This document shows positions 1-37,486 of a DNA stretch of 64,000 nt, piece after piece. Under the pieces are notes generated by a model. It saw only the letters and a list, made by a program, of their open reading frames with translations, had not been told where the DNA came from and did no database searches. Position numbers and translations under genes: made by a program. The stretch is from Squalus acanthias (taxonomy: Eukaryota). Numbering within the stretch: the stretch's first letter is position 1; every line of letters starts with the position of its first letter. The stretch spans positions 48,486,001-48,550,000 of the forward strand of contig CM059432.1 of the NCBI GenBank assembly GCA_030390025.1. The letters run 5' to 3'.

Positions 1-1349
1 AGTCTGACATTAGTAGGGAAAATACTAGAATCTATTATTAAGGACGTGGTAACAGGGCACTTAGAAAATAATAGGATTGGGCAGAGTCAACACGGATTTA
101 TGAAAGGGAAATCGTGTTTGACAAGTTTTTTGAGGTTGTAACTAGCAGAATAGATAAGGGGGAACTAGTGGATGTGGTGTATTTGGATTTTCAGAAGGCA
201 TTCGATAAGGTGCCACACAAGAGCTTATTAAACAAAATTAGGGCTCATGGGATTGGGGGTAATATACTAGCATGAAGTGAAGATTGGTTAACGGACAGAA
301 AACAAAGAGTAGGAATAAACGGGTAATTTTCAGGTTGGCAGGCTGTAACTAGTGGGGTATCGCAAGGATCACTGCTTGGGCCTCAGCTATTCACAATCTA
401 TATCAATGATTTGGATGAGGGGACCAAATGTAATATATCCAAGTTTGCTGATGATACAAAGCTAGGTGGGAATGTAAGTTGTGAGGAGGATGCAAGGAGG
501 CTTCAAGGGGATATAGACAGGTTAAGTGAGTGGGCAAGAATATGGCAAATGGAATATAATGTGGAGAAATGTGAAGTTATCCACTTTGGTTGGGAAAATA
601 GAAAAGCAGTGTATTTTTAAAATGGTGAGAGATTGGGAAATGTTGGTGTTCAGAAGGACCTGGGTGTCCTTGTACACGAATCACTGAAAGTTAACATGCA
701 GGTACAGCAAGCAATTAAGAAAGCAAATGGTGTGTTGGCCTTTATTACAAGAGGCTTTGAGTAGAAGAGTAAAGATGTCTTCCTGCAATTATATAGGGCC
801 CTAGTGAAACCACACCTGGAGTATTGTGTACAATTTTGGTCTCCTTACCTAAGGAAGGATATACTTGCCATAGAGGGAGTGCAACGAAGGTTCACCAGAC
901 CAATTCCTGGGGTGGAGGGATTGTCCTATGAGGAGAGATTGAGTAGACTGGGGCTATATTCTCTGGAGTTTAGAAGAATGAGAGGTGATCTCATTGAAAC
1001 ATACAAAACCAGGGCTTGACAGGGTAGATGCAGGGAGGATGTTTCCCCTGGCTGGGGAGTCTAGAACCAGGGGTCACAGTCTCAGAATAAGGGGTCGGCC
1101 ATTTAGGACTGAGATGAGGAGAAATTTCTTCACTCAGACGGTGGTGAATCTTTGGAATTCTCTACCCCAGAGCGCTGTGGAGGCTCAGTCATTGAGTATA
1201 TTCAAGACAGAGATCGATAGATTTTTGGATATTAAGGGATAGTGCAGCAAAGTGGAGTTGAGGTCGAAGATCAGCCATGATCTTATTGAATGGCAGAGCA
1301 GGCGAGGGGCCTAATGGCCTACCCCTGCTCCTATTTCTTATGTTCTTAG
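1..1349 (+). mobile_element. CR1 LINE 3' part (decayed RT and 3' UTR)
   Basis: [22 protein letters not shown] and RRMRGDLIE motifs broken by stops; tail cctatttcttatgttctta. Confidence 0.95.
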
Positions 1350-1422
1350 AAGCTAATTATTTTGCCATTAGCAAACTGAGGATAATATAACCTATATTCT
1401 TGTAACAAAAATGAAGGAATAC

Positions 1423-1610
1423 CTCTCAGATTTTTTGTTTTTTAGCTGTCTGGCACTTCGTTGTTTGGAGGTTTCAGTCATTTGTCGATAACTTGGAATC
1501 TTTGTTCGTCTAGCTCCCTTCTTGTGATTCTCTTTACAGCTCTCACTTTCACTCTCAGATGTATGATCAATATCTCGCTTTGCTTTTACTGTAGTTGAAG
1601 TAGCTGGAAC
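1423..1610 (-). CDS. LRRCC1: LRRCC1 coding exon 7 (188 nt); the gene continues beyond the window start
   Basis: Translates VPATSTTVKAKRDIDHTSESE...RRTKIPSY...KKSE, resembling the KRDxDxTSES and RRxKIP motifs of LRRCC1. Acceptor cttcag|G, donor GAG|GTATTC. Confidence 0.9.
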
Positions 1611-3774
1611 CTGAAGAATGAAGAAATCCAGCATGAAGTACATTTCCTCTGGTAAGTCAGGTTCCACAAAATATTGATTGCAAAAAGCCAATTTAAGCAG
1701 AATTAGTCTTAATAGCCATGCAACTCTTTACTGTAAAATATATTTTAGGTCACAGTGAAATAAATAGGAGCACAATGATTTATCAGTGATATAAAACCGG
1801 TGGTATACTTGCCCAGAATTTTAACTTTAGAATACTATTTGTCTTCCACCCATCCCTCCAAGATTATGCTTTTAGCTAGTGCAACTAAATGCCTATGTTT
1901 TAACTCTGTTTGAAATAATTTAGCACTGTAGTTAAGGGCATAGACAATTTTAAAATGCAAACAATAATTTTGACTTGCACAACTGAAAATGGGACACAGG
2001 ATCCCATGGTAACAATGAATGACCCAGACCAAAATATCTGAATTACCAGGACTTCAGTATTAGGTTTAAACTCATCAAAATAACTATTAGCATGGTTAAA
2101 CTCTGGCAATGTCGGTCTTCTTATTCATGGTTGTCTGAATAGTTATTTTTACGATAAACCATTGTGTGTTGGGGTTCACAAGTCTGCCTGCTCAGTCACA
2201 CTGACAGAGAGTCAAATATAGCTACACTCAGGGTTGCATGGAACTTTAGAAATATCCCAACTCCTTTTTTAAAGATAGCATTTCATTTTTTTTTTAAATA
2301 CTCCATCTTTAGGGAAATAAATTATTCTTTAACGCGCATGTCTCTGGCTTTCTCTTATTTTTCCTCAGACTAGGTTTCACACCTGATTAGGCCTAGAAAG
2401 CACAACAATGTCTATCAAACCGCATAGATGAACATGTTAAAAACGCTGTTCCAGCAATCCAAGTACCATCTCTGGTATTGCATTTTCAAAATTAGCAAGA
2501 GGAATGTAGCTTCCATTTTGACGTTAGGGAAATTTCTGTCTTTATTTTGTGTAGGTATTTGTCACATTAATAGGGGCACAGTTACATGACGGTATCCATT
2601 TGAGACCAGTCCCTGTTTAGAGCAATATGGAACCAGTGCTCCCCAACTTATACTGTTGAAACTGCATCACTCTCCAGTCATGCAAAGCAGGCGTGTGTGC
2701 AGACATGCTTACGTGCATGTATAGTGCTCAGCTCACCAGCATCCAAACACCAGTTACATTTTTTATACTAGCAGAGTTGATGAGGTAGTTATAAAGGATA
2801 ATAATTAATTGTAAACACTTCCCACTGTCAGTTTGACTGCCACGGAACTTTGGAAAGTTTGCTTTGCAGTTATCCTACAGCTAATGCAAAGCTAAAGTAA
2901 TCCAAAACTACAATTTACAAAAATGCAAAGCACGGTCAATTCAGTGCTTCAGTTAGGTTATATCGATGAATGTGTACCTCTGTGAAGCTGAACATGCTTA
3001 TAAATTCTACGCACAATATTCAATCTTTACTCTCTGCTACTCTAAAGAAATTCCCTCACTGCTGCATTTAAACAAAAATTGCTTCTGTTTTAAAACACAT
3101 TTCCAGTTTCAGAAAATACTTTTTGCAGGGTGTTATACACATCATAGCAATATTTTCCAGATGGGGATTCACATGCCTTTTGTGAGATTTTCCATTGGTT
3201 GTAAAGCGCTTTGGGGTGTATTGAGGTTGTGAAAGGCGCTACATAAAGTTTGTCTTTTTTTATTTCTTTGATTAATAAATGCCACCCGTGAATGCACAAC
3301 CATCTGAAGTGATTTTAATTCAAACTGCAACCAGGTGTTAATATGGAGGAAAAGAAATAGAAACACACCAGCAGGACAATTTGGTCCAAAAGGGATACAA
3401 TATATGCTGTGTGTTACAGATCTAAATAGCAGTCAATATTTCAAAATTATTTGAACATTTGCATTTCCCCAGTACATGAATGATGCCTAGAAGATTAAGG
3501 TTCATTATTTATCCTCATTCACGAAAATCTTTCATCATATATTAAGAAATTTATTGCAAATCATATTAAAACACCTCCCACTAAACATGTGATACTGTAT
3601 ATGTACCAACATTTACAAAACCTGCAATAATTACAATTGCGTATACAAAATTTTAATAATGTGAGTGAGCAATTTTTAAAAACACTGCCTAGTCTGGCCA
3701 CATAATTACACATACAAACTGCAATGTTAAACCAACGATTTTTCCTTCAGAAGTCATTCCTTTCCAACAATCAC

Positions 3775-7945: not shown

Positions 7946-10396
7946 TACCTCTTTCAGGGCATACACTGGTTTTGCAACCTACTAATTATATACTTGAATA
8001 GATTCCACTGTTGGTTTGTAAAATTAATGGGGGGGGGGGGCAGGTGGAGGATTCAGGAAAGGGTAAATTCAAAAGCAGCAAGAGAAATGTCAAGGCTGTA
8101 CAACAGAGTAGCGATTTGGGTAAAAATAAGCAGACTGGGTGAGGAAGGGACAAAGAGCTTGACAAAAGTAATTGGGCAATAAAGACTAAGGTGACATCAG
8201 AGAAAAATTTAAAAAAAGTTAAAGCTAAAGGCAATATATCTAAATGCGCGAAGCATTCGCAACAAAATACATGAATTAATAGCATAGATAAAAATAAATG
8301 GGTTTGATCTAATAGCCATTACAGAGTTGCAGAGTGACCAAGGTTGGGAACTAAATATTCTAGGATACTTGACTTTTAGATGAGATAGGAAAAATGGAAA
8401 AGGAGGGAGGGTAGCCCTGATAATAAAGGATGGGATAAAAACAGTAGAGAGAAAGGATCTTAGCTCAGAAAATCAAGATGTAGAAACAGTTTGGGTGAAG
8501 CCAAGAAACAAGGGGCAGAAAACACAGGTAAGAGCAGTTTATAGGCTCCCGAACAGTAGTTGTAGTGTCAGGCAAAGTATAAATCAGAAAATCAGAGGTG
8601 CATGTAACATGGGTAATACAGTAATCATGGGGAACTTTAGTTTTCAATATAGACTGGGCAAACCAAATTTGCAGTATTAGTGCGGAGGACAGGTTCCTGG
8701 AATGCATTCAAGATAGTTTTCTAGATCAGTATGTCGAGGAGCCAAGTAGAGAACAGGCTATTTTAGATCTAGGGTCTTAAATCTGAACAAAGCAAACTAC
8801 ATAAGTATGAGGAGCGAGTTGACTAACATAGATTGGGAAACTAGATTAAAAGATATGATGGTAGATAAGCAATGGCAAACATTTAATGGCTTAATTCATA
8901 ATTCACAACGAATATACAATCCCCTAAGGAATAAAAACCCCATGGGAAAAGTGGTCCAACCGTGGCAAACAAGAGAAGTTAAATATAGTATTAGATTAAA
9001 GGAAGAGGCTCATAATGTTGCCAAAAAGAGTTGTAAGCCTGAAGATTGGGAGGATTTTAGAATTCAGCAAAGGATGACCAAGAAATTGATAAAGAAAAAA
9101 GAGAATATGAGAGTAAACTATCAAGAGACATAAAAACAGATTGTAAAAGCTTCTTTATGTAAAAAGGAAGAGAGTAATGAAAGTAAACGTGGGTTCCTTA
9201 GAGGCAGAGACAGGAGAAATGAAATTGGGGAATAAGGAAATGTCAGAGACATTAAACAAATACTTTGTATGTGTCTTCACGGTAGATGACACAAAAGTCA
9301 TTGCGGAAATAGTGGGGAACTAAATGTCTAGCGAGAATGAGGAACTTAAAAGAAATTAGTATTAGTAAAGAAATAGTGCTAGAGAAATTAATGGGACTAA
9401 AAGTCGACAAATTCCCTGGACCTGATGGCCTACATCCCAGGGTTCTAAAAGAGGTGGCTACAGAGATAGTGGATGCAATCGTTTTGATCTTTCAGAATTC
9501 CCTATATTCTGGAACGGTCCCCGTGGATTGGAAGGTAGCAAATGCAACCCCGTTATTCAAGAAAGGAGGGAGAGAGAAAACGAACGATAGGCCAGTTACC
9601 CTGACGTCAGTAGTTGGGAAAATGCAAAAATCTATTATTAGGGCATGGTAACAGAGCACTTAGCATAGTATCATTGGGCAGAGTCAACATGGATTTATGA
9701 AAGGGAAATCGTGTTTGACAAAGATTTTTGAGGTTGTAACTAGCAGGGTAGATAAGGGGGAACCAGTGAATGTAGTGTATTTGGATTTTCAGAAAGCATT
9801 CAATAAGGTGCCACACAAGAGGTTATTAAACAAAATTAGGGCTTATGGGATTGGGGGGTAATATATTAACATGAATTGAGGATTGGTTAATAGACAGAAA
9901 AGAGAGAGTAACAATAAACAGGTCATTTTCGGGTTGGCAGGCTGTAACTAGTGGGGCACCGCAAGGATCAGTGAGTGGGTTTCAGCTATTTCCAATCTAT
10001 ATTAATGACTTAGATGAGGGGACCAATTGTAAGGTATCCAGGTTTACTGACAATACAAAGTCAGGTGGGAAAGTAAGCTGTAAGGAGGACGCAAAGGGGC
10101 TGCAAAGGGATAGAGACAGGCTAAGTGAGTGGGCAAGAACATGGCAGATGGAATATAATGTAGAGAAGTGTGAAGTTATCCACTTTGGTTGGGAAAATAG
10201 AAAAGCAGAATATTTTTCAAATAGTGAGAGACTGGGAAATGTTGGTATTCAGAGGGTGTCCTTGTACATGAATCACAGAAAGTTAACATGCAGGACAGCA
10301 AGCAATTAGGAAAGAAAATGGTATGTTATACTCCAATCCCTTAGTAATAAAAGCTAAGAGTAAAGAAGTTTTACTATAATTATATAAGGCCTTGGC

Positions 10397-11957
10397 CTGA
10401 TAATCTACATCCTAGGGTACTTAAGGAAGTGGCCCTAGAAATAGTAGATGCATTGCTGGTCATCTTCCAAAATTCTATAGACTCTGGAACAGTTCCCATG
10501 GATTGGAGGGTAGCTAATGTAACCCCACTATTTAAAAAAGGTGGGAGAGAGAAAACGGGGAATTATAGACCGGTAAGCCTGACATCAGTAGTGGGGAAAA
10601 TGCTAGAGTCCATTATAAAAGATGTAATAGCAGAGCACTTGGAAAACAGTGACAGGATCGGACAAAGTCAACATGGATTTACAAAAGGTAAATCATACTT
10701 GACTAATCTACTGGAATTTTTTGAGGATGTAACTGGTAGAATAGATAAGGGAGAACCAGTGGATGTGGTGTATTTGGACTTTCAGAAGGCTTTCGATAAG
10801 GTCCCGCATAAGAGATTGGCGTGCAAAGTTAAAGCACATGGGATTGGGGGTAAGGTACTGACTTGGATAGAGAACTGGTTGGCAGACAGGAAGCAAAGAG
10901 TTGGAATAAACGGGTCTTTTTCCGAGTGGCAGGCAGTGACGAGTGGGGTACCGCAGGGATCGGTGCTAGGACCCCAGTTATTCACAATATATATTAATGA
11001 TCTAGACGAGGGAACTAGATGTAATATCTCCAAGTTTGCAGACGACACAAAGCTGGGTGGGCGTGTGTGTTGTGAGGAGGATGCAGAGAAACTCCAGTAT
11101 GATTTGGACAGGTTGGGTGATTGGGCAGATGCATGGCAGATGCAGTATAATGTGGATAAATGCGAGGTTATCCACTTTGGTGGCAAAAACAGGAAGGCAG
11201 ATTATTATGTGAACGGCAGTAGATTGGGAAAAGGGGAAGTGCAACGAGACCTGGGAGTCCTTGTGCACCAGTCGTCGAAGGTAAGCATGCAGGTGCAGCA
11301 GGCGGTTAAGAAGGCAAATGGTATGTTGGCGAGAGGATTCGAGTACAGGAGCAAGGATGTCTTGCTGCAGTTGTACAGGGCCTTGGTGAGACCACACCTC
11401 GAGTATTGTGTGCAGTTTTGGTCGCCTTATCTGAGGAAGGATGTTCTTGCCATGGAGGGAGTGCAGCGAAGATTCACCAGACTGATACCTGGGACGGCAG
11501 GAATGACGTATGAAGAGCGATTGGGACAATTGGGCTTGTATTCGCTAGAGTTTAGAAGAATGAGAGGGGATCTAATTGAAACTTATAAAATTCTAACAGG
11601 ACTAGACAGACTAGATGCAGGAAGGATGTTCCTGATGGCGGGGGAGTCCAGAACCAGGGGTCACAGTCTAAGGATAAGGGGTAAGCCATTTAGGACTGAG
11701 ATGAGGAGGAATTTCTTCACCCAGAGAGTGGTGAACCTGTGGAATTCTCTACTTCACAAGGCAGTTGAGGCCAATTCATTAAATATATTCAAGAAGGAGA
11801 TAGATATATTTCTTAAGGCTAAAGGGATCAAGGGATATGGGGAGAAAGCAGGGACAGGGTACTGAATTTGGATGATCAGCCATGATCTCATTAAATGGCG
11901 GAGCAGGCTCGAGGGGCCGAATGGCCTACTCCTGCTCCTATCTTCTATGTTTCTATG
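10397..11957 (+). mobile_element. Younger 5'-truncated CR1 with an uninterrupted 478-aa RT frame (10429-11865)
   Basis: NYRPVSLTS, YLDFQKAFD, GVPQGSVLGP and KFADDTK motifs; tail tcttctatgtttctat. It splits the host sequence aggccttgg|tgagaccacacc. Confidence 0.95.
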
Positions 11958-12382: not shown

Positions 12383-14230
12383 TTCATAAGAACATAAGAA
12401 TTTGGAGCAGGAGTAGGCCATACGGCTCTTGAGGCTGCTCCGCCATTCAATAAGATCATGGCTGATTTCCGACTTCAACTCTGCTTTCCCGCCCGATCTC
12501 CATATCCCTTGATTCCCCCAGTGTCTAAAAATCTATCGATCTCAGCCTTGAATATACTCAACGATTCAGGATCCACAGCTCTTTGGGGTAGTGAATTCCA
12601 AAGATTCACAACGCTCTGAGTCAAGAAATTCCTCATCCCTGTCTGACATGGCCAACTCCTTATCCTGAGACTATGACCCCTAATTCTAGACCCTCCAGCC
12701 AGGGGAAACAACCTCTCAGCATTTACCCTGTCAATCCCCCTCAGAATCACATTTTTTTTTTTTTTAAATTCGCTTATGGGATCTGGGCATTGCTGGCAAG
12801 GCCAACATTTATTGCCCAACCCTAGTTGCCCTTGAGAAGGTGGTGGTGAGCCGCCTTCTTGAACCGCTGTAGTCCGTGTGGTGAAGGTACTCCCACAGTG
12901 CTGTTAGGTAGGGAGTTCCAGGATTTTGGCCCAGCGACAATGAAGGATCGGCGATATACTTCTAAGTCAGGATGGTGTGTGATTTGGAGGGGAACTTGGA
13001 GGTGGTAGTGTTCCTATGCGCCTGCTGCCCTTGTCCTTCTAGGTGGAAGAGGTCGCGGGTTTGGGAGGTGCTGCCGAAGATGCCTTGGTGAGTTGCTGCA
13101 GTGCATCTTGTAGATGGTACACACTGCAGCCACAGTACGCCGGGGTGCCAAGCAAACGGGCTGCTTTGTCCTGGATGGTGTCGAGCTTCTTGAGTGGTGT
13201 TGCAGCTGCACTCATCCAGGCAAGTGGAGAGTATTCCATCACACTCCTTACTTGTGCCTTGTAGATGGTGGAAAGGCTTTGCCGAGTCAGGAGGGGAGAC
13301 ACTCGCCGCAGAATACCTAGCCTCTGACCAGCTCTTGTTACCACAGTATTTATGTGGCTGGTCCAGTTAAGTTTCTGGTCAATGGTGACCCCCCCAGGAT
13401 GTTGATGGTGGGGGTTTCGGCGATGGTAATGCCATTGAATGTCAAGGGGAAGTCTCTCGCTTGTTGGAGATAGTCATTGCCTGGCACTTCTGTGGTGCGA
13501 ATGCTACCTGCCACTTATCAGCCCAAGCCTGAACGTCGTCCAGGTCTTGTTGCATGTGGACATGGACTGCTTCATTATCTGAGGAGTTGTGAATGGCGCT
13601 GAACACTGTGCAGTCATCAGCGAACATCCCCTTTTCTGACCTTATGTTGAAGGTTATTGATGAAGCAGCTGAAGATGGTTGGGCCTAGAACACTGCCCTG
13701 AGGAACTCCTGCAGCGATGTCCTGGGGCTGTGATGATTGACCGTCAATCACCACAACCATCTTCCTTTGTGCTAGGCATGACTCCAGCCAGTGGAGCGTT
13801 TCCCCCCCCGATTCCCATTGACTTCAGTTTTACTAGGGCTCCTTGATGCCGCACTCGGTCAAATGCTGCCTTGATGTCAAGGGCAGTCACTCTTACCTCA
13901 CCTCAGCTCTGGAATTCAACTCCTTTGTCCATGTTTGGACCAAGGTTGTAATGTGGTCGGGAGCCGAGTGTTCTTGGCGGAACCCAAACTGGGCATCAGT
14001 GAGCAGGTTATTGGTGAGTAAGTGCCACTTGATAGCACTGTCGATGACACCTTCCATCACTTTGCTGATGATTGAGAGTAGACTGATGGGTCGGTAATTG
14101 GCCGGATTGGATTTGTCCTGCTTTCTGTGGACAGGACATACCTGGGCAGTTTTCCACATTGTCGGATAGATGCCATAGATATATTTCAATGAGATCACCT
14201 CTCATTCTTCTAAACTCCAGAGAGTATATA
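12383..14230 (-). mobile_element. Antisense CR1 3' fragment, itself split by another LINE
   Basis: cataagaacataagaa tail at 12385. The RT C-terminus runs to about 12750 and resumes at about 14180-14230 (YSLEFRRMRGDLIE). Confidence 0.85.
12752..14178 (-). mobile_element. tRNA-headed LINE family, 5'-truncated copy (RT and 3' tail)
   Basis: NYRPISLLSIISK, QFGFR and MFADDCTVF motifs; 3' stem-loop followed by poly-A (poly-T at 12752-12766). Confidence 0.9.
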
Positions 14231-18199: not shown

Positions 18200-19178
18200 A
18201 CTAATACAACTTTATCTTGCTTTTATGAAGCACCTGTAACATAAAAGAAATCCCAAGGCACTTTAGAGGCATAAAGAAAAAGTGGAGAGAGACAAAAGAG
18301 GAGATATTAGAAAGGTGACTAAAATGCTTGGTCAATGAGGTAGGTTTTAAGGAGGGTCTTAAAAGAGGTGGCGAGATGGATGGATTTAGGAGGGAATTGC
18401 TGAGCATGGGACCTAGGTAGCTGAAGGCACAGCCGTCACAGACAAGGGAAAGGAAGGCAGAACTTACAGGAGGTCAAAGTGAGAGGAACAGCGAATTCGG
18501 GGGATGGTTGGGGGGGGGGGTGGGGGGGGAGCGCAGAAGGGCAGAGTGGGTTGTAGTACTGGAGAATGTTGCAGAGATGGAAAGATTGAGTTGCTGGAAA
18601 GATTTAAACACAAAGATAATAATTTTACAATTCATACATTGGGGAACCAGGACCCAAAGTGGGTCAGCGAGGCCAAGGGCAACAGATAAGTAGGACAAGC
18701 AGAGTTTTGGATGGAATGAAGTTCATGGAGCGCAGAGAATGCAAGCCTAAAAAGGAAAGCATTGAAATAGTCAAATCTGGTGACAAATGTATGGGTAAGA
18801 GTTTCAGCAGCAGATGGGCTGAGGTAGTGATGAAGGCGATAGATGTTACGAAGGTGGAAGCGGACATCTTTGTGATGGAGAGCATATGGGGTCAAAAGCT
18901 CAGCTTGTGATCAAACAGAATGGTGTGATTGCCAAAATGTCTGATCCAGATGGAGATAAAGGCAAGGAGAGCATTAGAGATGGTGCCAAGGGTGTAGAGT
19001 TTACGCCGGGAACCAAAGCAAATGGCTTCAGTCTTCCAAACGTTTAGCTTGAGGAAACTGCAGCTCAAACAAGAATGGATGTCAGGCAAGCAGCCTGACA
19101 GCACAGAATCAGTGGAGGGATTGTGCTGGGTGTCATCAACATACAGGTGAGAACTAACCCCACATCTTTTTCTCAAGA
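18200..19178 (-). mobile_element. Decayed L2 LINE (RT C-terminus and tail)
   Basis: HLYVDDTQ, FHLRNI and AETLTHTFVTRFDYFN motifs. Confidence 0.8.
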
Positions 19179-19179
19179 A

Positions 19180-21052
19180 TGGGAATGGCAGCATAGTGGT
19201 TATGTTACTGGACTAGCAATCCAGAGGCCTGGACTAATAATCCGAAGACGTGAGTTCAAATCCCACCACAGCAGCAGCTGGGGAATTTAAATTCAGTTAA
19301 CTAAATAAATCTGGAATAAAAAGCTAGTATCAGTAATGGTAACCATGAAACTATCGGATTGTTGTAAAAACCCATCTGGTTCACTAATGTCCTTTAGGGA
19401 AGGAAATCTGCCGTCCTTACCTGGACTGGCTAATATGTGACTCCAGACTCACAGCAATGTGGTTGACTCTTAACTGCCCTCTGAAATGGCCTAGCAAGTC
19501 ACTCAGTTGTAACAAACCATTGCAAGATACAATAATAAGTGTAAAACCGGACAGACCACCTGGCATCGACCTAGGCACCGGCTTCGGACACAACAACGGG
19601 ACAGCCAGCCCAGTCGACCCTGCAAAGTCCTCCTCACTAACATCTGGGGACTTGTGCCAAAATTGGAAGAGCTGTCCCACAGACTAGTCAAGCAGCAGCC
19701 TGACATAGTCATACTCACAGAATCATACCTTTCAGCCAATGTCCCAAACTGCTCCATCACCATCCCTGGGTATGTCCTGTCCCACTGGCAGGACAGGCCT
19801 ACCAGAGGTGGCAGCACAGTGGTACACAGTCGGGAGGGAGTGGCCTTGGGAGCCCTCAACATTGACTCCGGGTCTCATGGCTTCAGGTCAAGCATGGGCA
19901 AGGAAACCTCCTGCTGATTACCACCAACTGCCCTCCCTCAGCTGATGAATCAGTACTCCTCCAATGTTGACCACCACTTTGATGAAGCACTGAGGGTAGC
20001 AAGGGCACAGAATGTACTCTGGGTGGGGGACTTCAATGTCCACCACCAAGAGTGGCTCGGTAGCACCACTACTGACCGAGCTGGCCGAGTCCTGAAGGAC
20101 ATAGCTGCCAGAATGAGCCTGGGGCAGGTGGTGAGAGAACCAACACGAGGGGAAAAACCTACTTGACCTCGTCCTCACCAATCTACTTGTCGCAGATGCA
20201 TCTGTCCATGACAACACTGGTAGCAGTGACCACCGCACAGTCCTTGTGATGACGAAGTCCTGTCTTCACACTAAGGACACCCTCCATCGTGTTGTGTGAC
20301 ACTACCACCGTGCTAAATGGGATAGATTCAGAACAGATCTAGCAGCTCGAAACTGGGCATCCATGAGGCGCTGTGGGCCATCAGCAGCAGCAGAATTGTA
20401 TTCCACCACAATCTATAACCTCATGACCCAGCATATCCCTCACTCTACCATTACCCTCAAGCCAGGGGACCAACCCGGGTTCAATGAGGAGTGCAGAAGA
20501 GCATGCCAGGAACAGCACTAGGTGTACCTAAAAATGAGGTGCCAACCTGGGGAAGCTGCAACACGGGACTACATGCATGCTAAAAAGCGGAAGCAGCATG
20601 CTATAGACAGAGCTAAGTGATCCCACAATCAACGGATCAGATCAAAGCTCTGCAGTCCTGCCACATCCAGTCGTGAATGGTGGTGGACAATTAAACAACT
20701 AACGGGAGGAGGAGGCTCCATGAATATCCCCATCCTCAATGATGGTGGAGCCCAGCACATGAGTGCAAAAGACAAGGCTGAAGCGTTTGCAACCATCTTC
20801 AGCCAGAAATGCCAAGTGGATGATCCATATCGGTCTCCTCCTGACGTCCCCACCATCACAGAAGCCAGTCTTCAGCCAATTCGATTCACTCCACGTGATA
20901 TCAAGAAATGGCTGAGCGCACTGGATACAGCAAAGGCTCTGGGCCCCGACAACATCCCGGCTGTTGTGCCGAAGACTCGTGCTCCAGAACTAGCCACGCC
21001 TCTAGCCAAGCTGTTCCAGTACAGCTACAACACTGGCATCTACCCGACAATG
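19180..21052 (+). mobile_element. tRNA-headed LINE family, 5' half: Pol III-type head, body, APE endonuclease, linker
   Basis: A-box-like AGCATAGTGG, anticodon-like arm CTGGA-CTAGCAA-TCCAG, B-box GTTCAAATCC. Then KVLLTNIWGL, DIVILTES, VGDFNVHH, LDLVLTN, SDH and GPDNIP motifs, with frameshifts and stops. Confidence 0.88.
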
Positions 21053-21340
21053 TAATGGTTACCATGAAACTATTGGATTGTTGTAAAAACTCATTGGTTC
21101 ACTAATGTCCTTTAGGGAAAGAAATCTGCCGTCCTTACCCGGTCTGGCCTATATGTGACTCTAGACCCACAGTAACGTGGTTGACTCTTAAGTGCCCTCT
21201 AAAATTGTCTAGCAAGCCAGTTGTACCAAACTGCTACAAAAAGGCAAGAAGGTGGTTCACCACCACCTTCTCAAGGGCAATTAGGGATGGGCAGTAAATT
21301 CTTACCAGCGACGCCCACATACCGAACGAATAAACACAAA
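21053..21340 (+). mobile_element. SINE-like derivative: 5' body of the tRNA-headed LINE joined to its 3' tail
   Basis: 21053-21230 repeats 19335-19516; 21246-21340 matches the LINE 3' tails at 34919-35013 and 45742-45840. Confidence 0.85.
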
Positions 21341-22222: not shown

Positions 22223-22896
22223 TTTTTTTTTTAAATTCGTTTTTATGGGATGTGGGTGTCACTGGCAAGGCCAGCATTTATGCCCATCCCTAGTTGCCCT
22301 TGAGAAGGTGGTGGTGAGCCGCCTTCTTGAACCGCTGCAGTCCGTGTGGTGAAGGTACTCCCACAGTGCTGTTAGGTAGGGAGTTCCAGGATTTTGACCC
22401 AGCGACGATGAAGGATCGGCGATATACTTCTAAGTCAGGATGGTGTGTGACTTGGAGGTGGTGGTGTTCCCATGCGCCTGCTGCCCTTGTCCTTCTAGGT
22501 GGAAGAGGTCGCGGGTTTGGGAGGTGCTGCTGAAGAAGCCTTGGCGAGTTGCTGCAGTGCATCTTGTAGATGGTACACACTACAGCCACGGTACACCGGG
22601 GGTGGAGGGAGTGAATGGGGTGGTGGATGGGGTGCCAATCAAGCGGGCTGCTTTGTCCTGGATGGTGTCGAGCTTCTTGAGTGTTGTTGGAGCTGCACTC
22701 ATCCAGGCAAGTGGAGAGTATTCCATCACTCTCCTTACTTGTGCCTTGTAGATGGTGGAAAGGCTTTGGGGAGTCAGGAGGTGAGACACTCGCCGCAGAA
22801 TACCTAGCCTCTGACCTGCTCTTGCTGCTACAGTATTTATGTGGCTTTAAGTTTCTGGTTAACGGTGACCCCCAGGATGTTGATAGTGGGGGATTC
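22223..22896 (-). mobile_element. tRNA-headed LINE family, 3' fragment
   Basis: YKAQVRRVMEYSPLAW motif; same 3' stem-loop and poly-A as the other copies. Confidence 0.9.
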
Positions 22897-25087: not shown

Positions 25088-28000
25088 TAGGGAGGGGTGG
25101 AAGGATTCAGGAAAGAGTAAATTTAAAAGCAGTAAGAGAAATGTCAAGGCTCTAGAGCAGAGTAGAGTTTTGAGTAAAAATAAGCAGAGTGAATCAGGGA
25201 CAGAGAGAGAGTAACAAAGGTAATAAGGCATCAGGGAAAAAATAGAAATAAGTCAAAGCTAAAGGCACTATATCTAAATGCACGGAGCATTCGCAACAAA
25301 ATAGGTGAATTAATAGCGCAGATAGAAATTAACAGGTTTGATCTAATAGCCATAACGAAGACGTGGTTGCAAAGTGGCCAAGGTTGGGAACAAAATATTC
25401 CAGGATACTTAACTTTTAGAAGAGATATGAAAAATGGAAAAGGAGGATGGGTAGCCCTGATAATAAAGGATGGGATAAAGACAGTAGAGAGACAGGAACT
25501 TAGCTCCGAAAATCAAGAAGTAGAATCAGTTTGGGTGGAGCTAAGAAACAGCAAGGGGCAGAAAACATTTGTGGGAGTTGTTGATAGGCCCCCAAACAGT
25601 ATGGCCCAAAAATTAGTGCCGCTACGCGAGAGTACGCACTGCGTACTCTCGCGTATTCTGTCTCCAATTGCCGGTTTTCTGCATGCACTGCGCATGCGCT
25701 GAAAACCGGCACTTGGTGAATGGAAAAGGGGGCGGGTCCTAGGTGAACCGCGTGCGCGCTACAGGCTGCGCGCTTAGTGGTTTCAACGCGCAGCTAAGTA
25801 CGGAAGATTCTACACATAAAAAAAGGAGGAGTAAGACCCACTTTTAACAAGGTAAGTAGTGAATTAAGTATTATTTTGAATTTTTTTTAACAGGTATATC
25901 TTTTTTAGAGACTTTAAAGACAGGTAAGTTTATTTTTATAACTTTTTAAAAGATTTAAAATTTTTTCAAAAATTTAATTTTTTATTTAAAATGGTTAATT
26001 TATTTAACTATACTTAAAATGTGATGGTTTTTTTTTTAAATTTAATTGAGGTTTAGCGGTTCTTTTGGGGGGCTATAGTATTCATAACTTTCACAGCACT
26101 TATGTGAAAGTTATGAATGGAAGATGGTGCGCTGCCATTGGCTCTAACTGAGTCACGTGATCCCACAGCTCGCACGAATTAACTACGCCGGTGGGATACG
26201 CAAGCCCAGCACAGCAGCTGTCCAGAACATCAAGTTCGTGCGAGCTGGAACTGAAAAAGCCAACGCGGAGTGAGAGATCGCGGGGAGGCCTTACCCTCGC
26301 ACGAAGGCTTCCTCACGAATTTTTGGGCCTATAAATCAGGAAATTAGAGGCGCATGTAACAATGGTAATACAGTAATCATGGGGGACTTTAATCTACATA
26401 TAGACCGGGCAAACCAAATTTGCAGTAATAGTGTGGAGGATGAATTCATGGAATGCATGCAAGATAGTTTTCTAGATCGGTATGTTGAAGAACCAACTAG
26501 GGAACAGGTTATTTTAGATCTAGTATTGTGCAATGAGAAAGGGTTGATTAATAACCTTGTACTAAAGGGGCCTTTAGGGAAGAGTGACCAAAATATGTTA
26601 GAATTTTATATTGAGTTTGAAAGTGATTTAGTTAAATCCGAAACTAGGGTCTTCAATCTAAACAAAGCAAACTACATAGGTATGAGCGGCGAGTTGGCAA
26701 AGGCAAATTGGGAAACTACATTAAAAGGTATGACGGTAGACAAGCAATGGCTAGCATTTAAAGAATTAATACATAATTTACAACAAATATACATTCCTTT
26801 AAAGCACAAAAACCCCACAAGAAAAGTGGTCCAACCGTGGCTAACAAGAGAAGTTAAGGATAGTATTAGATCAAAGGAAGAGGCTTATAATCTTGCCAAA
26901 AAAGAGTAGTGAGCATGAGGATTGGGAGGATTTTAGAATTCAGCAGAGGACCAAGAAATTGATAAAGAAAGGGAAAACAGAATAAGAGAATAAACTAGCG
27001 AGAGACATAAAAACAGACTGTAAAAGCTTCTATAGGTATGTAAAAAGGAAAAGATTAGCGAAAGTAAATGTGGGTCCCTTACAGGCTGAGACAGGAGAAA
27101 TTATAATGGGGAATAAGGAAATGGCAGAGAAATTAAACAAATACTTTGTGTCTGTCTTCACGGAAGAAGACGCAAAAAGCTTCTTGGAAATAATGGAGAA
27201 CCAAGGCTCTAGCGAGAATGAGGAACTGAAAGAAATTAGTATTAGTAAAAAAATTAGTATTGGAGAAATTAATGGGACTGAAAGCTGATAAATCCCCTGG
27301 ACCTGATGGCCGACATCCTAAGGTTTTGAAAGAGTTGGCTATAGGGATAGTGGATGCATTGGTTGTCATTTTCCAAAAATCCATAGATTCTAGAACGGTT
27401 CCCGCGGACTGGAAGGTAGCAAATGTAACCCCACTATTTAAGAAAGGAGGGAGAGAGGAAAAAAGGGGAACTACAGACCAGTTAGTGTGACATCAGTAGT
27501 AGGGAAAAATGCTAGAATCTATTATTAAGGACGTGGTAACGGCACTTAGAAAATAATAATAGGATTGGGCAGAGTCAACATGGATTTATGAAAGGGAAAT
27601 CGTGTTTGACAAATCTGTTATTTTGAGGTTGTAACTAGCAGAATAGATAAGGGGGAACCAGTGGATGTGGTGTATTTGGATTTTCAGAAGGCATTCGATA
27701 AGGTGCCACACAAGAGGTTATTAAACAAAATTAGGGCCCATGGGATTGGGGGTAATATACTAGCAATGGATTGAGGATTGGTTAACGGACAGAAAACAGA
27801 GAGTAGGAATAAACGGGTCATTTTCGGGTTGGCAGGCTGTAACTAGTGGGGTACCGTAAGGATCAGTGCTTGGGTCTCAGCTATTCACAATCTACATCAA
27901 TGATTTGGATGAGGGGACCAAATGTAATATATCCAAGTTTACTGATGATACAAAGCTGGGTGGGAATGTAAGTTGTAAGGAGGATGCAAGGAGGCGTCAA

Positions 28001-28265
28001 GGGGATATAGACAGGTTAGGTGAGTGGGCAAGAACATGGCAAATGGAATATAATGTGGAGAAATGTGAAGTTATCCACTTTGGTAGGAAAAATAGAAAAG
28101 CAGAGTATTTTTTAAATGGTGATATATTGGGAAATGTTGGTGTTCAGGGGGACCTGAGTGTCCTTGTACATAAATCACTGAAAGTTAACATGCAGGTACA
28201 GCAAGCAATTAGAAAGCAAATGGTTATTACAAGAGGATTTGAGTACAAGAGTAAAGACGTCTTAC
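25088..28265 (+). mobile_element. Decayed CR1 ORF2, interrupted by a MITE and truncated at its 3' end
   Basis: Collinear with the copy at 8030; MGDFNL, ILDLVLCN and KFTDDTKLGG motifs. Confidence 0.92.
25603..26329. mobile_element. Harbinger-like MITE (copy A)
   Basis: Perfect 12-bp TIR GGCCCAAAAATT and 3-bp TSD TAT (25600-25602 and 26330-26332); cleanly interrupts a CR1. Confidence 0.85.
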
Positions 28266-29195
28266 GTTGTGTATATGGACTTTCAAAAGGCGTTTGATAA
28301 AGTACCACATATTAGGCTTGTTTGCAAAATTGAAGCTCATGGGATAAAAGGGGCAATAGCAACATGGATATAAAACTGGCTAAGTGATAGAAAACAGAGT
28401 GTTGTAGTGAATGGCTGTTTATCAGACTGGAGGGAGGTATACAGTGGTGTTCCCCAGGGTTCAGTACCAGGACCACTGCTGTTTTTGATGTACATTAATG
28501 ACTTGGACTTGGGGTACAGGGCACAATTTCAAAATTTGCAGATGGCACGAAACTTCGAAGTGCAGTAAACAGTGAGGATACAGCAATAGACTTCAAGAAG
28601 ACATAGACAGGCTGGTGGAATGGGCAGACACATGGCAGATGAAATTCAACGCAGAGAAGTGTGAGGTGATGCATTTTGATAGGAAGAATGAGGAGAGGCA
28701 ATACAAGCTAACTGGTACAATTTTAAAGGGGGTGCAAGAACAGATACCTGGGGGGGGTGTTTGTGCACAAATCTTTGAAGGTGGCAGGACAGATTAACAA
28801 AGTAGTTAATAAAGCATATGGGATCCTGGGCTTTAAAATAGAGGCATAGAGTACAAAAGCCGGGAAGGTTTGCTAAACCTATATAAAACACTAGCTGGAG
28901 TATTGTGTCCAATTCTGGGCACCACACTTTAGGAAGGACGTGAAGGCTTTGGAGAGGGTACAGAAGAGATTTACTAGAATGGTTCCAGCGATGAGGGATT
29001 AGTTACGTGGATAGACTAGAGAAGCTGGGGGTGTTTTCCTTAGAGCAGAGAAAGCTAAGAGGAGATTTGATAGAGGTCTTCAAAATCATGAAGGGTTTAG
29101 ATAGCGTAAATAAAATGAAATGGTTTCCAATGGCTGAAGGGTCGATAACCAGAGTGCACAGACTTAAAGTGACTGGCAAAAGATCCAGAGGCAAA
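28266..29195 (+). mobile_element. CR1 RT fragment of another subfamily
   Basis: YMDFQKAFDKVPH, WADTWQMKFNAEKC and LRGDLIEVFKIM motifs. Confidence 0.88.
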
Positions 29196-31475: not shown

Positions 31476-32627
31476 TATATGAATTAATGTGTTACCTTTG
31501 ACTAAAGCCCAGGATATAGGATAAGATAGGGAAAACATTCCAGGTGGGCAAGAGCTAAGTTGTAAGATCATATGGAGCAGTCGTAGGGAGTTTTTTTTGG
31601 TGGGGGTGGGATGACTCATGGGTCATTAGTGTTGGAACGGTGGATTTGAGAACATTAGGAACAGGGATCATGGAAGAAAAGTAGAGATACAAGTTTCTGA
31701 GAGAACTGGAAGGGAGTGCAGCCATGCTGTTAAAAAGAGCTGTCAATGTTTAATAAGAGTGGAAGAGAGGTGTTGGGTATGGTAGCACTGGGTGTGGGTG
31801 TACTTGGATGTAGGAGGAGTCCCAGGGGGTAGGAGGACTGGGAGGCCAGTACTGGTGTAGCTGTGCTCGGAGGGTACTAGTAGCAGTGTTGGGAGGGAGG
31901 GGCAGAGGTTCAGGGTGTTGCTGACAAAAGCGTGACAACAGATGCTTCTAAGTCATAAATGGCACATTCCACTTGTAAAACATTCTTCAATGCCTTCAGT
32001 AATTTTTTTTAATGATTTGCTTCCTTTAAAGAGTCTTTAAGAGATAGAGCAGAGAGGTTTCAGACGCAAATATGCAACAGCACCACCTACCTTGAAGAAC
32101 TCAATTAGTGGCATGTACAATTAAATGGTTACTTTCAATAGTGACAGATAATTCTAACAAAAAAAGCACAGATAGATAGGCATGAAGGAAATAGAATAGA
32201 AAAAGCTTGGCAGGTAAGTGTTACACTTACAGGACATGCATGGAACAGCTGAGACCTTTAATATATTATAGATCTACATCACAAGATAGTTACAGATGAG
32301 GAAGGCCATCGCCCTATCTTAGTTCATCCATCCAAAAACATCCTGAAGTACCCCTCATTTCAGCACTCAATTATTTCTTAACAAGATTGCAGCGTTTTCA
32401 CATCCACTAGTTTTCAAGGAAGTCTATTCCGTACGCTGATCACTCTTGGGGGGTAATTTTCACTTTTAGGGATTGCGCAAAACAGGCAATATTGGATCAG
32501 CCACCCGTTGTACACCTCTCCCAATTTTCCTTTCCATTGACTTCAATTACAACTTTATAAGTCGTTTTAACAGATTTCTTTTTTTGAAACTGTGTTTGTC
32601 AAACAAAAATAGTGAGATTTGAATTCA

Positions 32628-32693
32628 TTGAAGTATTAGCCCAGGCCTCTGGATTACTAGTCCAGTAACATAACCGCTACACTAATGCACCCC
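32628..32693 (-). mobile_element. Isolated tRNA-like head of the same SINE/LINE family
   Basis: Reverse complement reads gtgtagcggttatgttactggactagtaatccagaggcctgggctaata, matching 19190-19240; anticodon-type loop CTAGTAA. Confidence 0.75.
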
Positions 32694-33063: not shown

Positions 33064-35015
33064 TAGAAGAGCATGGCAGGAGCAGCACCAGGTGTACCTA
33101 AAAATGCAGTGCCAACCTAGGGAAGCTGCAACACAGGATTACATGCATGCTAAAAAGCAGAAGCAGCATGCTACAGACAGAGCGAAGCAATCCCACAATC
33201 AACGGATCAGATCAAAGCTCTGCAGTCCTTCCACAACCAGTCGTGAATGGTGGTAGACTATTAAACAACTAAAGGGAGGAGGAGGCTCCATGAATATTCC
33301 CATCCTCAATGATGGTGAAGCCCAGCACGTGAGTACAAAAGACAAAGCTGAAGTGTTTGCAACCATCTTCAGCCAGAAGTGTCGAGTGGATGATCCATCT
33401 CGGCCTTCTCCTGAGGTCCCCACCACCACAGAAGCCAGTCTTCAGCCAATTTGATTCACTCCATGTGATATTAAGAAATGGCCGAGTGCACTGGATACAG
33501 CAAAGGCTGTGGGACCCGACAACATCCCGGCTGTCGTGTTGAAGACTTGTGCTCCAGAACTAGCTGCGCCTCTAGCCAAGCTGTTCCAATACAGCTATAA
33601 CACTGGCATCTATCCGACAATATGGAAAACTGCCCTGTCCACAAAAAGCAGGACAAATCCAATCCGGCCAATTACCGCCACATCAGTCTATTCTCAATCA
33701 TCAGCAAAGTGATGGAAGGTGTTGTCGACATTGCTATCAAGCAGCACTTACTCACCAATAACCTGCTCATTGATGCCTAGTTTGGGTTCCGCCAGGACCA
33801 CTTGGCTCCAGACCTCATTACAGCCTTGGTCCAAACATGGACAAAGAGCTGAATTCCAGAGGTGGGGTGAGAGTGAATGCCTTTGACATCAAGGCAGCAT
33901 CTAACCAAGGGTGGCATCCAGAAGCCCTAGTAAAACTGAAGTCAATGGGAATCGGGGGGAAAAACACACCACTGGCTTGAGTCATACCTAGCACAAAGGA
34001 AGATGGTTGTGGTGGTTGGAGGTCAATCATCACAGCCCCAGGATATCACTGCACGAGTTCCTCAGAGCAGTGTCCTAGGCCCAACCATCTTTAGCTGCTT
34101 CATCAATGACCTGCCCTCCATCATAAGGTCAGAAGTGGGGATGTTCGCCGATGACTGCACAGTGTTCAGTGCCATTCGCAACTCCTCAGATAATGAAGCA
34201 GTCCATGTCCGCATGCAGCAAGACCTGGACGACATTCAGGCTTGGGCTGATAAGTGGCAGGTAACATTCGCGCCACACAAGTGCCAGGCAATGACTATCT
34301 CCAACAAGTGAGAGTCTAACCACCGCCCCTTGGCATTCAACAGCATTACTATCGTCGAATCCCCCACTATCAATATCCTGGGGGTCACCATTGACCAGAA
34401 ACTTAACTGATCAGCCACATAAATACTGTGGCAACAAGAGCAGGTCAGAGGCTGGGTATTCTGCAGCGAGTGTCTCACCTCCTGACTCCCCAAAGCCTTT
34501 CAACCATCTACAAGGCACAAGTCAGGAGTGTGATGGAATACTCTCCACTTGCCTGGATGAGTGCAGCTCCAACAACACTCAAGAAGCTCAACACCATCCA
34601 GGACAACGCAGCCCGCTTGATTGGCACCCCATCCACCACCTTAAACATTCACTCCCTCCACCACTGGCGCACCGTGGCTGCAGTGTGTACCATCTACAAG
34701 ATGCACTGCAGCAACTCGCCAAGGCTTCTTCAGCAGCACCTCCCAAACCCGCGACCTCTACCACCTAGAAGGACAAGGGCAGCAGACGCATGGGAACACC
34801 ACCACCTCCAAGTTCCCCTCCAAGTCACACACCATCCTGACTTGGAAGTATATCGCCGTTCCTTCCCTCCCTAACAGCACTGTGGGAGTACCTTCACCAC
34901 ACGTACTGCAGCAGTTCAAGAAGAAAGCTCACCACCACCTTCTCAAGGGCAACTAGAGATGAGCAATAAATGCTGGCCTTGCCAGCGATGCCCACATCCC
35001 ATGAACAAATAAAAA
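33064..35015 (+). mobile_element. tRNA-headed LINE family, 3' 2 kb (linker, RT, tail)
   Basis: Overlaps the 20495-21052 sequence and continues through VPQSSVLGP and MFADDCTVF to the 3' stem-loop. Confidence 0.92.
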
Positions 35016-37486
35016 GCCAGGGTGCCTGTAGGGGCACTACACTTGGCCTAAGCACCTGAGTTAGCGAGGGAAGTATTAGCCAGGGCTCCCACTTCCATCG
35101 GATTACATAGGATATACGGCACAGAAACATGCCATTCGGCCCAACCAGTCCATGCCGGCGTTTATACTCCACTCGAGCCTCCTCCCGTCTTTCCTCATCT
35201 AAATCTATCAGCATAACCCTCCATTTCCTTCTCCCTCATATGCTTATCTAGCATCCCCTTAAATGCATCTATACTATTTGCCTGAACTACTCCTTGTGGT
35301 AGCAAGTTCCACATTCTCATCACTCTCTGAGTAAAGAAGATTCTTCTGAATTCCCTATTTGATTTCTTGGTGACTATCTTATATTGATGGCCTCGAGTTA
35401 TGCTCTTCCCTACAAGTGGAAACACTCTCTCTGTATCTAAAATTCTGAAAGGTTTTGATAGAGTAAAGACCTCAATTAGGTCACCCCTAAGCCTTCTTTT
35501 TCCAAGCGAAAAGAGACACAGTCTGTTCATCCTTTCCTGATATGTATACCCTTGCATTTCTGGTATCATCCTTGTAAATCTTCTCTGCACCCTCTCCAGT
35601 GCCTCTATATCCTTTTTATAATATGGCGACAAGAATTGTACCCAGTACTCCAAGTGTGGTATAACCAAGGTTCGATACAAGTTTAGCATAACTTCCCTAC
35701 TTTTCAATTCTATCCCTCTAGAAATAAACCCTAGTGCTTGGTTTGCTTTTATTTATGGCCTTGTTAACCTGTGTCGCTACTTTTAGATGATTTGTGTATT
35801 TGTACTCCAAGATCCCTTTGCTCCTCTACCCCACCCAAACTCGCACCCTCCAAGTAGTACGTGACCTCCCTAGTCTTCCTACCAAAATGTAATACCTCAC
35901 ATTTATCTGTGTTGAATTTAATTTGGCAATTCTATGCCCATTCTGCAAGTTTATTAATGTCCTCCTGTAATTTGTTGCAGTCCTCCTCACTATTAACCAT
36001 CACCCCCAATTTGGTGTCATCCGCAAATTTAGAAATTGTGTTTTTGATTCCAAAGTCTAAATCGTTAATATAAATTGTGAACAACAACAGTGGTCCCAGC
36101 ACTGATACTTGTGGAACACCACTACTCACCTTCTGCCACTGTGAATAGCTACCCTTTACTCCTATTCTCTGCGTTCTGTCCTGAAGCCAGCCAGTAATCC
36201 ATTCTGCTACTTGTCCCAACTCTACATTCTCTGACTTTGTTCATCAGTCTATTATGGGATACCTTATTGAAGGCCTTTTGAAAATCCAGATAAATTATAT
36301 TTTCTGCATTACCCTCGTCTACTCTCTCAGTTATCTCTTCAAAGAATTCAATGAGGTTGGTCAAGCAAGAGTTTCTCTTTTGAAATCCACGCTGACTAGT
36401 CATTATTATATTTTTGGTTTTTAGATATTCTTCTATTTTCTCCTTTAGTAGGGATTACATTATTTTTCCTACCACCGATGTTAAGCTGACTGATCTATAG
36501 TTCCATGGACATGCTCTATCTCCCTTCTTAAATATAGGTATTATGTTAGCTGTCCGCCAGTCCTCTGGCACTACACCTTTTTCTAATGAATTATTAAATA
36601 TGTGTAGTAATGCCTCTGCTATTTCTTCCCTAGATTCCTTTAAAATGAGCGGATGTAATCCATCCGGACCAGGGATTTTTTCCTGTGAGTTTCATTAGTT
36701 TATTTAATATATCTCCTCTTTTTATTTTAAATGCAGTTATTTCATTACTAATCTCATGATCCAATGTCATGTCCACCTGTTCTATCTCCCTAGTAAATAG
36801 TGAAGCAAAGTAATTGTTTAATATTTCTGCCATCTCTCGATCACTGCCAATGGTATTATCTTTTCCATCCCTTAGTGGCCCTATTCCCATCCCAACCTTC
36901 CTTTTTTTAAATTGATGTGCCTGTAAAATATTTTTCTATTTTGTTTTATATTCCTTTATAATTTAATTTCATAGTTCTTCTTTGCCTTCCGAATTGTTTT
37001 TTTGACTTCTCTCTAATCTCTTCATATTTTCCCTCATCATGCCTCCCTGCTGTCCAAGTACTTAATGTATGCCTCTTTCCTTACCCTCAATTTTTCCCTT
37101 ATGGCTTTCTTCATCCATGGTGTCTCATTCGTGTTTAGTTTGTTCTTGATTTTTAGCAGAATATATTGTTCCTGCAATCTGTTGAACACCGTTTTAAATG
37201 TTTCCCATTGCTGTTCTATGTCATTGCTTGCCAATATTGTTGTCCATTTTATTTTCTATTCTAAGCCTCTCAAAATCAGCTTTTCTCCAATCTATTTCCC
37301 TGGTCTTCGTCATACTTATGTCCTTCACAATTATTATTTTAAAGCGTATTATATTATGGTCACTATTGCCTAGATGTTCCCCTACTTTTACTTCCCTTAT
37401 CTGCTCTGGTTCATTCCCCATTACTAGATCCAACAGCAAATCCTCCCTTGTTGGGCTTTTTACATATTAGGTTAGAAAGGAGTCCT

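Follow-up and report, generated by a model that had tools for sequence, protein, structure and literature searches.

The window analyzed here is a 64,000-nucleotide stretch of the Squalus acanthias genome (GenBank assembly GCA_030390025.1, contig CM059432.1, positions 48,486,001–48,550,000, forward strand). At window positions 19181–21051, on the plus strand, it harbors a dead copy of a long interspersed element (LINE) that opens with a transfer RNA (tRNA)-derived module of the kind that heads short interspersed elements (SINEs) and that ends abruptly at 21051, inside the reverse transcriptase (RT). Comparison of this copy with others in the 3.7-Gb assembly reveals that the headed element is an autonomous-type LINE with a single open reading frame (ORF), which encodes an apurinic/apyrimidinic-type endonuclease (APE) followed by RT, and with a tRNA-Thr-like SINE head. 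In common accounts, LINEs are coding transcripts of RNA polymerase II (Pol II) and SINEs are noncoding transcripts of RNA polymerase III (Pol III) that borrow their machinery from elsewhere; LINE master copies that carry a SINE head blur this division and provide a concrete intermediate in the joining of tRNA heads to LINE tails, a long-standing question.

A LINE that opens with a tRNA-Thr-derived head

The A box of the window head spans 19189–19199 and reads CAGCATAGTGG in this copy and TAGCGTAGTGG in the family, and the B box, GTTCAAATCC, is found at 19254–19263, so the tRNA-like head with both boxes that the initial annotation had proposed is indeed present at 19181–19275. The loop of the anticodon arm (19213–19219) is CTAGCAA in the window copy and CTAGTAA in most family copies; the arm itself is duplicated in the window head, with the second arm serving as a long variable arm. 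Against the Rfam tRNA model, the window head aligns over the D, anticodon, and T arms, with a 22-nt insert but without the acceptor stem, and scores 21.4 bits (E 0.069). Scores of 21.4 and 14.7 bits versus a gathering score of 29 are not those of a functional tRNA gene, and ARAGORN made no tRNA call over the 64-kb window.

The full element measures 3.27 to 3.30 kb (pairwise alignments of copies, which diverge by ≈4–13%, span 3.25–3.31 kb) and consists, in order, of the ≈95-nt head, a ≈260-nt leader, one ORF of ≈970 residues, and a conserved 3′ tail of ≈150 nt with an A-run. Pfam searches with the open frames of natural copies identify Exo_endo_phos_2 (PF14529, E 3e-14), Exo_endo_phos (PF03372, 1.2e-9), and RVT_1 (PF00078, 3e-10 and 3e-15). 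The endonuclease therefore lies 5′ of the RT in one ORF, as in APE-type LINEs, and the dispersed copies share a common 3′ end and are variably truncated at the 5′ end; a length of ≈3.2–3.3 kb, one APE–RT ORF, no substantial ORF1, and short untranslated regions (UTRs) give the family an RTE-type architecture. Approximately 357 nt precede the ORF and harbor no long ORF of their own. Of 30 copies, 18 open the ORF with an ATG at ≈nt 358; the ORF ends at ≈nt 3230–3260. The leader contains a median of eight upstream ATGs across family copies, and an upstream ORF ending at a start-codon ATGA, an arrangement suited to termination–reinitiation, was absent from all 15 copies checked. The tail harbors a perfect 6-bp hairpin (GCTGGC/GCCAGC) in most copies, AATAAA twice, and a run of 7 to 13 A residues; folded whole, it is not more stable than shuffled sequences (z −0.8). 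Target-site repeats in the flanks of ten full-length copies are only weak or ambiguous. In one well-preserved, 5′-truncated copy (L155, 3440–3456), T5 and T9 runs and no plain A-run follow the 3′ end of the element.

Database relatives share at most 48% identity with the family and are mostly unnamed APE–RT proteins of 930 to 1000 residues on contigs of 3.2 to 4 kb. Among 80 related LINE loci from metagenome contigs, 41 of which have an ORF of at least 400 residues and carry at least 300 nt upstream of it, there is no ARAGORN tRNA and no match to the A/B-box pattern; the same pattern matches 11 of 20 headed-family copies. The closest metagenome relative has no upstream ORF of at least 120 residues, and 13 of 31 more distant relatives do have one. 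The nearest relatives being single-ORF elements as well, the lack of an ORF1 is ordinary for such LINEs, and the head, which none of the 80 loci shows, is peculiar to this family. The initial annotation had placed the APE at about 19621, with no room left for an ORF1; that position is nearly right (≈19625), but the ORF starts farther upstream, at ≈19541, and the missing ORF1 does not set the element apart.

The head-to-ORF junction recurs across the genome

We searched the assembly with a query covering the leader–ORF junction (19440–19720), and all 40 places scored, taken from 6,045 first-look candidates, match it over its full length with 91 to 100% identity. A longer head-to-APE query (19100–19900) starts 80 nt upstream of the head and ends inside the APE; all 39 other matches to it start at query positions 76 to 103 and continue to positions 791 to 801, well into the APE. 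The upstream flanks of 30 aligned loci are unrelated to one another, and the same first eight nucleotides, or a one-letter variant of them, open 23 of these loci, with the other seven cut 5 to 22 nt inside the head. Because these matches had been ranked with the head inside the query, we also made two head-blind censuses comprising 30 copies in all, i.e., 20 of the 33 junction-query places missing from the 19100–19900 match set and, out of 109 places matching the N-terminal protein sequence of the ORF, the first 10. A complete head starting at nt 1 to 10 is present in 12 of the 30 (one with an internal head deletion), one copy starts at nt 40, 16 start at positions scattered from nt 93 to 340, and one is interrupted by an insertion. 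No second common 5′ end was found among these 30 copies. Full-length copies of the family share one fixed first nucleotide and open with a tRNA-Thr(AGT)-derived head.

These data bear directly on whether the window copy is merely a SINE that came to lie beside a LINE by chance, or an assembly artefact at one locus, as the presence of the head in just one of the five window copies might suggest. The junction repeats on many contigs with unrelated flanks, and since both the junction searches and the censuses recover it again and again, this reading is refuted; independent insertions share the head–APE junction, a check that the initial annotation had proposed.

The A box occupies nt 9 to 19, preceded by 8 nt of the element, and the B box is found ≈50 nt farther on, at ≈nt 72 to 82. 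This is the layout of a type 2 Pol III promoter, with internal A and B boxes at a workable spacing near the presumed transcript start, and equally that of a SINE2-type 5′ head, here at the start of a LINE. In 39 heads examined, the A box is within one mismatch in 30, the B box in 36, and both in 27, versus six heads in which ARAGORN reports some tRNA and four in which it reports tRNA-Thr(agt). Because near-intact boxes so outnumber tRNA calls, the boxes have been kept better than the RNA fold. None of 11 heads of the commoner variant, GGGAAC, is called a tRNA, and the Thr calls on canonical starts belong to the GGGAAT variant; furthermore, in the printed sequences of this commoner form, which bears CpG, the acceptor stem seems poorly paired.

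Two head variants differ at nt 21, 26, and 32, all of which lie outside the boxes. When ten full-length copies are divided by head variant, 19 fixed-like differences in the ORF separate the groups, and this division ranks joint first among the 210 possible 6/4 splits, for which the median is three such differences. Over 782 codons, the ORFs of the two headed groups differ with a proportion of synonymous differences (pS) of 0.051 and of nonsynonymous differences (pN) of 0.016, or a pN/pS of 0.31, where the noise from such small groups shifts the ratio toward 1. The cosegregation of head and ORF variants together with this ratio shows that the head descended jointly with the ORF and that the protein was under purifying selection in the headed lineages.

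Four of the 16 leader-truncated copies in the censuses (L058, L064, L066, and L069) begin at nt 140 to 152, just past an A-rich stretch of the leader, and a SINE-type fragment in the window begins within this range as well, at leader nt 149. The cluster may mark a second RNA start or a stop of reverse transcription.

A SINE twin with the same head, leader, and tail

The LINE has a SINE twin of ≈490 bp that consists of the LINE's head, leader, and 3′ tail, with ≈340 nt at the 5′ end common to the two. Two SINE-type copies, one at window positions 21052–21334 and one at positions 389–882 of locus L005, join leader nt ≈341–343 directly to tail nt ≈3154–3196, and the L005 copy opens at the LINE's own first nucleotides; contigs from four public runs harbor the same joints, with 2,863 to 2,911 nt skipped. 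Short, noncoding, and dependent on a partner, the twin is a SINE in the usual sense, which the 3.3-kb LINE is not. The known elements Bov-tA, SINE2_Gav, CoeSINE4, and WALLSI2 are likewise tRNA-headed SINEs that owe their bodies and tails to a LINE's 5′ and 3′ UTRs (Kojima 2018, PMC5786205), and thus resemble the twin in combining a tRNA head, a LINE leader, and a LINE 3′ tail. In that account, the partner LINE is headless and made by Pol II, the head is joined to an already deleted, noncoding derivative, and protein coding is declared impossible for SINEs (PMC5786205). In contrast to the partner LINEs of those four SINEs, the coding LINE itself bears the head here.

In the window, the broken LINE adjoins a same-strand SINE-type copy at 21051/21052, the latter starting at leader nt 149. 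Two origins are conceivable for this joint: the insertion may be nested, with the remainder of the LINE lost, or both parts may stem from a single insertion in which the template switched from SINE RNA to LINE RNA.

The sense strand avoids runs of T

A run of four T residues (T4) is the minimal Pol III terminator (PMC5725217, PMC3141230). The initial annotation had noted that five window copies of the element lack TTTT on the sense strand amid common A4 runs, and that neighboring LINEs are rich in T4; both observations stand. The five copies harbor no sense T4 versus 9.0 expected in sum from mononucleotide shuffles, with A4 runs common, whereas four fragments of other LINE families, the sense strands of which are very C-poor (13–14%) and G-rich, carry 4, 9, 12, and 3 sense T4 runs versus 2.9, 6.2, 6.6, and 2.4 expected. 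An alignment of 13 copies contains nine private T4 runs and none common to three or more copies; sites common to at least half of the copies include 13 A4, 11 C4, and 9 G4 runs. At the ancestral level, the sense strand is therefore free of T4. Ten full-length copies together contain 8 T4 runs versus 47.7 expected from base composition, with an even spread along the element. The expectation per copy falls from 3.0–5.0 in mononucleotide shuffles to 1.3–2.8 in dinucleotide shuffles, for which the probability of the observed number or fewer is 0.11 to 0.69; synonymous-codon shuffles give 1.8 to 1.9 (P(0) 0.11–0.13), and the dinucleotide and codon-preserving nulls overall give ≈1.7 to 2.8 (P(0) ≈0.11–0.17).

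The depletion extends to shorter runs. In the headed family, rhoTT is 0.72 to 0.80 and rhoTTT 0.21 to 0.50, with A-runs overall at expectation, versus medians of 1.06 (lowest 0.81) and 1.16 (lowest 0.54) in 62 relatives, which harbor 1,138 T4 runs in total versus 887 expected and only one of which is T4-free. Relative to expectations that preserve the protein and its codon usage, copy L051 contains 72 TT versus 83.7 ± 3.8 and 4 TTT versus 12.7 ± 2.9 (P 0.002), and copy L052 contains 6 TTT versus 15.0, with AA, AAA, CCC, and GGG all at expectation; the corresponding observed-to-expected ratio for TTT is 0.31 to 0.40 in the headed family, compared with 43 relatives in which its median is 1.00 and its lowest value 0.74. 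Phe codons show a TTC:TTT ratio of 16:3 versus 1.6 to 1.7 for other C3:T3 codon pairs, a marginal difference (Fisher P 0.05–0.09). Because the depletion of TT and TTT exceeds what codon usage explains and lies far outside the range of the relatives, T-run avoidance is a peculiarity of this family, confined to its sense strand, and not a by-product of composition.

A local deficit of A-runs is found in the same ten full-length copies between nt 2401 and 3100, where there are 4 A4 runs versus 33 expected; A4 is at expectation elsewhere in the element.

Transcription of the headed LINE

We consider transcription of the ≈3.3-kb LINE RNA by Pol III to be the best reading of these findings, although the evidence is indirect and we would place it a little short of an even chance. 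TFIIIC and TFIIIB would assemble on the A and B boxes, and Pol III would initiate at nt 1, in which case the promoter would be copied into each full-length daughter, much as in SINEs. Pol III could then traverse all 3.3 kb and terminate in the 3′ flank, since the sense strand has been kept clear of T4 and contains few TT and TTT. The uncapped RNA would be translated at a low level, independent of scanning through the ATG-rich leader, and the encoded protein would copy its own RNA by target-primed reverse transcription starting at the tail; an internal deletion within the ORF would give rise to the ≈490-bp SINE twin with the same head, leader, and tail. Taken as a whole, the element might be described as an “autonomous SINE,” that is, a coding retrotransposon that would be made by Pol III, free of its stop signals, and parent of its own SINE by a single internal deletion, a description that we put forward tentatively. 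The headed, autonomous-type LINE of the initial annotation thus stands, and the adaptation to Pol III that it proposed has circumstantial evidence from sequence in its favor.

Were Pol III to make this RNA, it would yield a translated messenger in nature, and the activity of the element wherever it lands would be explained without room for a Pol II promoter. The family would represent a natural long sequence purged of Pol III terminators, and the birth of a SINE would begin with a headed LINE and not with the fusion of a tRNA to a LINE tail.

A number of points weigh against Pol III. Its usual products are far shorter than 3.3 kb, and its RNAs are uncapped and poorly translated, so that the translation step is one that we purely infer. 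The two AATAAA motifs and the A7–13 run at the 3′ end have the layout of Pol II-polyadenylated LINEs such as L1. The absence of T4, which the initial annotation had suggested testing against shuffled controls, is weak by itself and not significant under dinucleotide- and codon-aware nulls, and it is the depletion of TT and TTT beyond codon usage that holds; even so, 6 to 14 TTT words are still present per copy, the codon-fixed results for L051 and L052 amount to one test because both are copies of one family, and avoidance of U-rich destabilizing motifs could be another cause of the low TTT. No intact copy was found among the 110 copies scored out of 141,678 candidates or the 99 scored out of 307,391 (candidate numbers, not copy numbers); the longest open frames measure 931 and 929 residues, and the two best N-terminal candidates for an intact master are 5′-truncated at nt 233 and 207. 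Finally, human Pol III stops at noncanonical sites as well (PMC3141230).

The main rival, which we regard as quite possible if somewhat doubtful, is that Pol II transcribes the LINE, driven by an internal promoter formed by the head and leader, to give a capped and polyadenylated RNA. The head would then be a relic left when the element once fused with a tRNA or with its own SINE, retained as part of the promoter or 5′ UTR or simply hitch-hiking, and the poverty in T-runs would stem from composition or constraints on RNA stability. The AATAAA motifs and A-run fit this reading, as do the need to translate a protein of ≈970 residues, the fact that low T content, dinucleotide frequencies, and codon usage can account for the absence of T4 taken alone, and the view of LINEs as Pol II transcripts in the literature (PMC5786205). 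On the other hand, a Pol II-made template would have to begin exactly where that of the SINE twin does, 8 nt before the A box; a leader with a median of eight upstream ATGs is ill suited to cap-dependent scanning; and a depletion of TT and TTT that is confined to the sense strand, exceeds codon usage, and falls far outside the range of the 43 to 62 relatives is not predicted.

Two further readings, RNase P-type processing and template switching, are less likely than either Pol III or Pol II transcription. The head might act as RNA, the element being cotranscribed with a host gene and the tRNA-like fold being cut by RNase P or marking or protecting the 5′ end, a role comparable to that played in some RTE, R2, and other LINEs by HDV-like ribozymes at the 5′ end. 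A cut 5′ of such a fold would yield the sharp 5′ end observed, ARAGORN finds a cloverleaf starting at nt 2 in some heads, and 5′ self-cleaving ribozymes are reported in RTE and other clades (PMC5786205). We nevertheless consider this improbable, given that a tRNA is called in just 6 of 39 heads and Thr in 4, that the Thr calls on canonical starts fall on GGGAAT and not on the commoner GGGAAC, the acceptor stem of which seems poorly paired, that the Rfam scores are below the gathering threshold with the acceptor stem omitted, and that avoidance of T-runs is not predicted. Alternatively, RT copying a headless LINE RNA might jump to SINE RNA within the common leader, making headed copies mere by-products. 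The ≈340 nt of 5′ end that LINE and SINE have in common would permit such a jump, LINE enzymes are known to switch templates and form chimeras (PMC6789731), and the four of 16 truncated copies that start at nt 140 to 152 could mark a second RNA start; however, head variants cosegregate with ORF variants, there is no full-length class with a common headless start (truncation points lie here and there between nt 93 and 340), and the T-run avoidance of the ORF is left unexplained, all of which makes this reading very unlikely.

Relationship to known elements

In the literature searched, which leaves most subscription journals, Repbase, and Dfam outside its coverage, no LINE with a tRNA head or with Pol III transcription is described. 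LINEs of ≈3.2 to 3.6 kb with one APE–RT ORF and no ORF1 are found in the RTE clade and among some L2-type fish elements, and the headed LINE resembles these, by architecture alone, in its 3.3-kb length, single ORF of ≈970 residues, short UTRs, and internal-deletion derivatives, and differs from them in its tRNA 5′ module, its A-run tail with AATAAA, and its T-run avoidance. Cassandra elements, which are terminal-repeat retrotransposons in miniature (TRIMs) with a 5S Pol III promoter in their long terminal repeats (LTRs), likewise harbor a Pol III promoter module within a longer retroelement; unlike the headed LINE, Cassandra is a noncoding LTR element, and it carries a 5S module in place of a tRNA one.

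U6/L1-type chimeras are one-off dead ends in which a small RNA is joined to variably truncated 3′ parts of L1, in contrast to the headed LINE, whose one fixed, full-leader junction was inherited and amplified with an ORF under purifying selection. These and other chimeric retrocopies of small RNAs and LINEs (PMC6789731) do resemble the headed LINE in placing a Pol III small RNA 5′ of LINE sequence, and by analogy their formation is a plausible route by which the head may first have been acquired. The bipartite, nonautonomous LINEs RTE1-N1_LA, WALLSI3, and RIME/ingi (PMC3747384, PMC5786205) keep only the 5′ and 3′ parts of a LINE, as the SINE twin does, but lack a small-RNA head and are considered Pol II transcripts. 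Finally, sharks and rays harbor the HE1 SINE and HER1 LINE (Ogiwara et al. 1999, via PMC3747384), a tRNA-derived SINE and a LINE with a common conserved 3′ tail, which may, as compared by description only, be the same as or related to the pair characterized here; in the literature searched, no mention of a head on HER1 was found.

Other features of the window

The features of the window are collected in Table 1.

Table 1. LINE- and SINE-related features of the 64-kb window.
Feature	Window positions	Strand	Remarks
tRNA-Thr-derived head	19181–19275	+	≈95 nt; 5′ end of element; A box, anticodon arm, B box
Leader (5′ UTR body), common with SINE twin	19276–19540	+	≈260 nt
Decayed ORF	19541–21051	+	ATG lost; APE from ≈19625, linker, first part of RT
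SINE-type copy, 5′-truncated	21052–21334	+	Leader nt 149–343 fused straight to LINE 3′ tail
Same-family LINE copy, 5′-truncated	33064–35014	+	Reference nt 1318–3293; RT and tail
Same-family LINE copy, 5′-truncated	44872–45844	+	Reference nt 2342–3299
Same-family LINE copy, 5′-truncated	12755–14175	−	Reference nt 1858–3300; frameshifts
Same-family LINE copy, 5′-truncated	22224–22896	−	Reference nt 2620–3300
Head-only copy	32609–32684 (or from 32606)	−	78–82% identity to LINE head; TTTTT directly after; no leader, ORF, or tail
3′-tail-only fragment	54510–54634	−	Reference nt 3175–3299
Other-family LINE fragments	153–1007, 9346–11592, 26367–28713 (+); 35875–36679 (−)	+ and −	RT 24–40% identical to headed LINE

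The four further copies with which the initial annotation had completed the RT and tail do belong to the same family as the headed LINE (89–93% DNA identity), but two of them, at 12755–14175 and 22224–22896, run on the minus strand, and 5′ truncation affects all four. Together with the headed copy, these five fragments comprise ≈6.9 kb; because they fill ≈11% of the window, this large family is relevant to how this genome grew. A “55%-identity related family” at 12777–14201 proved to be a tblastn frameshift artefact and is in fact the headed family, at 89% DNA identity. The head copy near 32628, from which the CTAGTAA loop had been read, does exist, but it is isolated, lies on the minus strand, is joined to no LINE, and has no connection with the copy at 33064. 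Its possible identities include a tRNA-like pseudogene, a retrocopy of the head by itself, and a relative of the gene from which the head derives.

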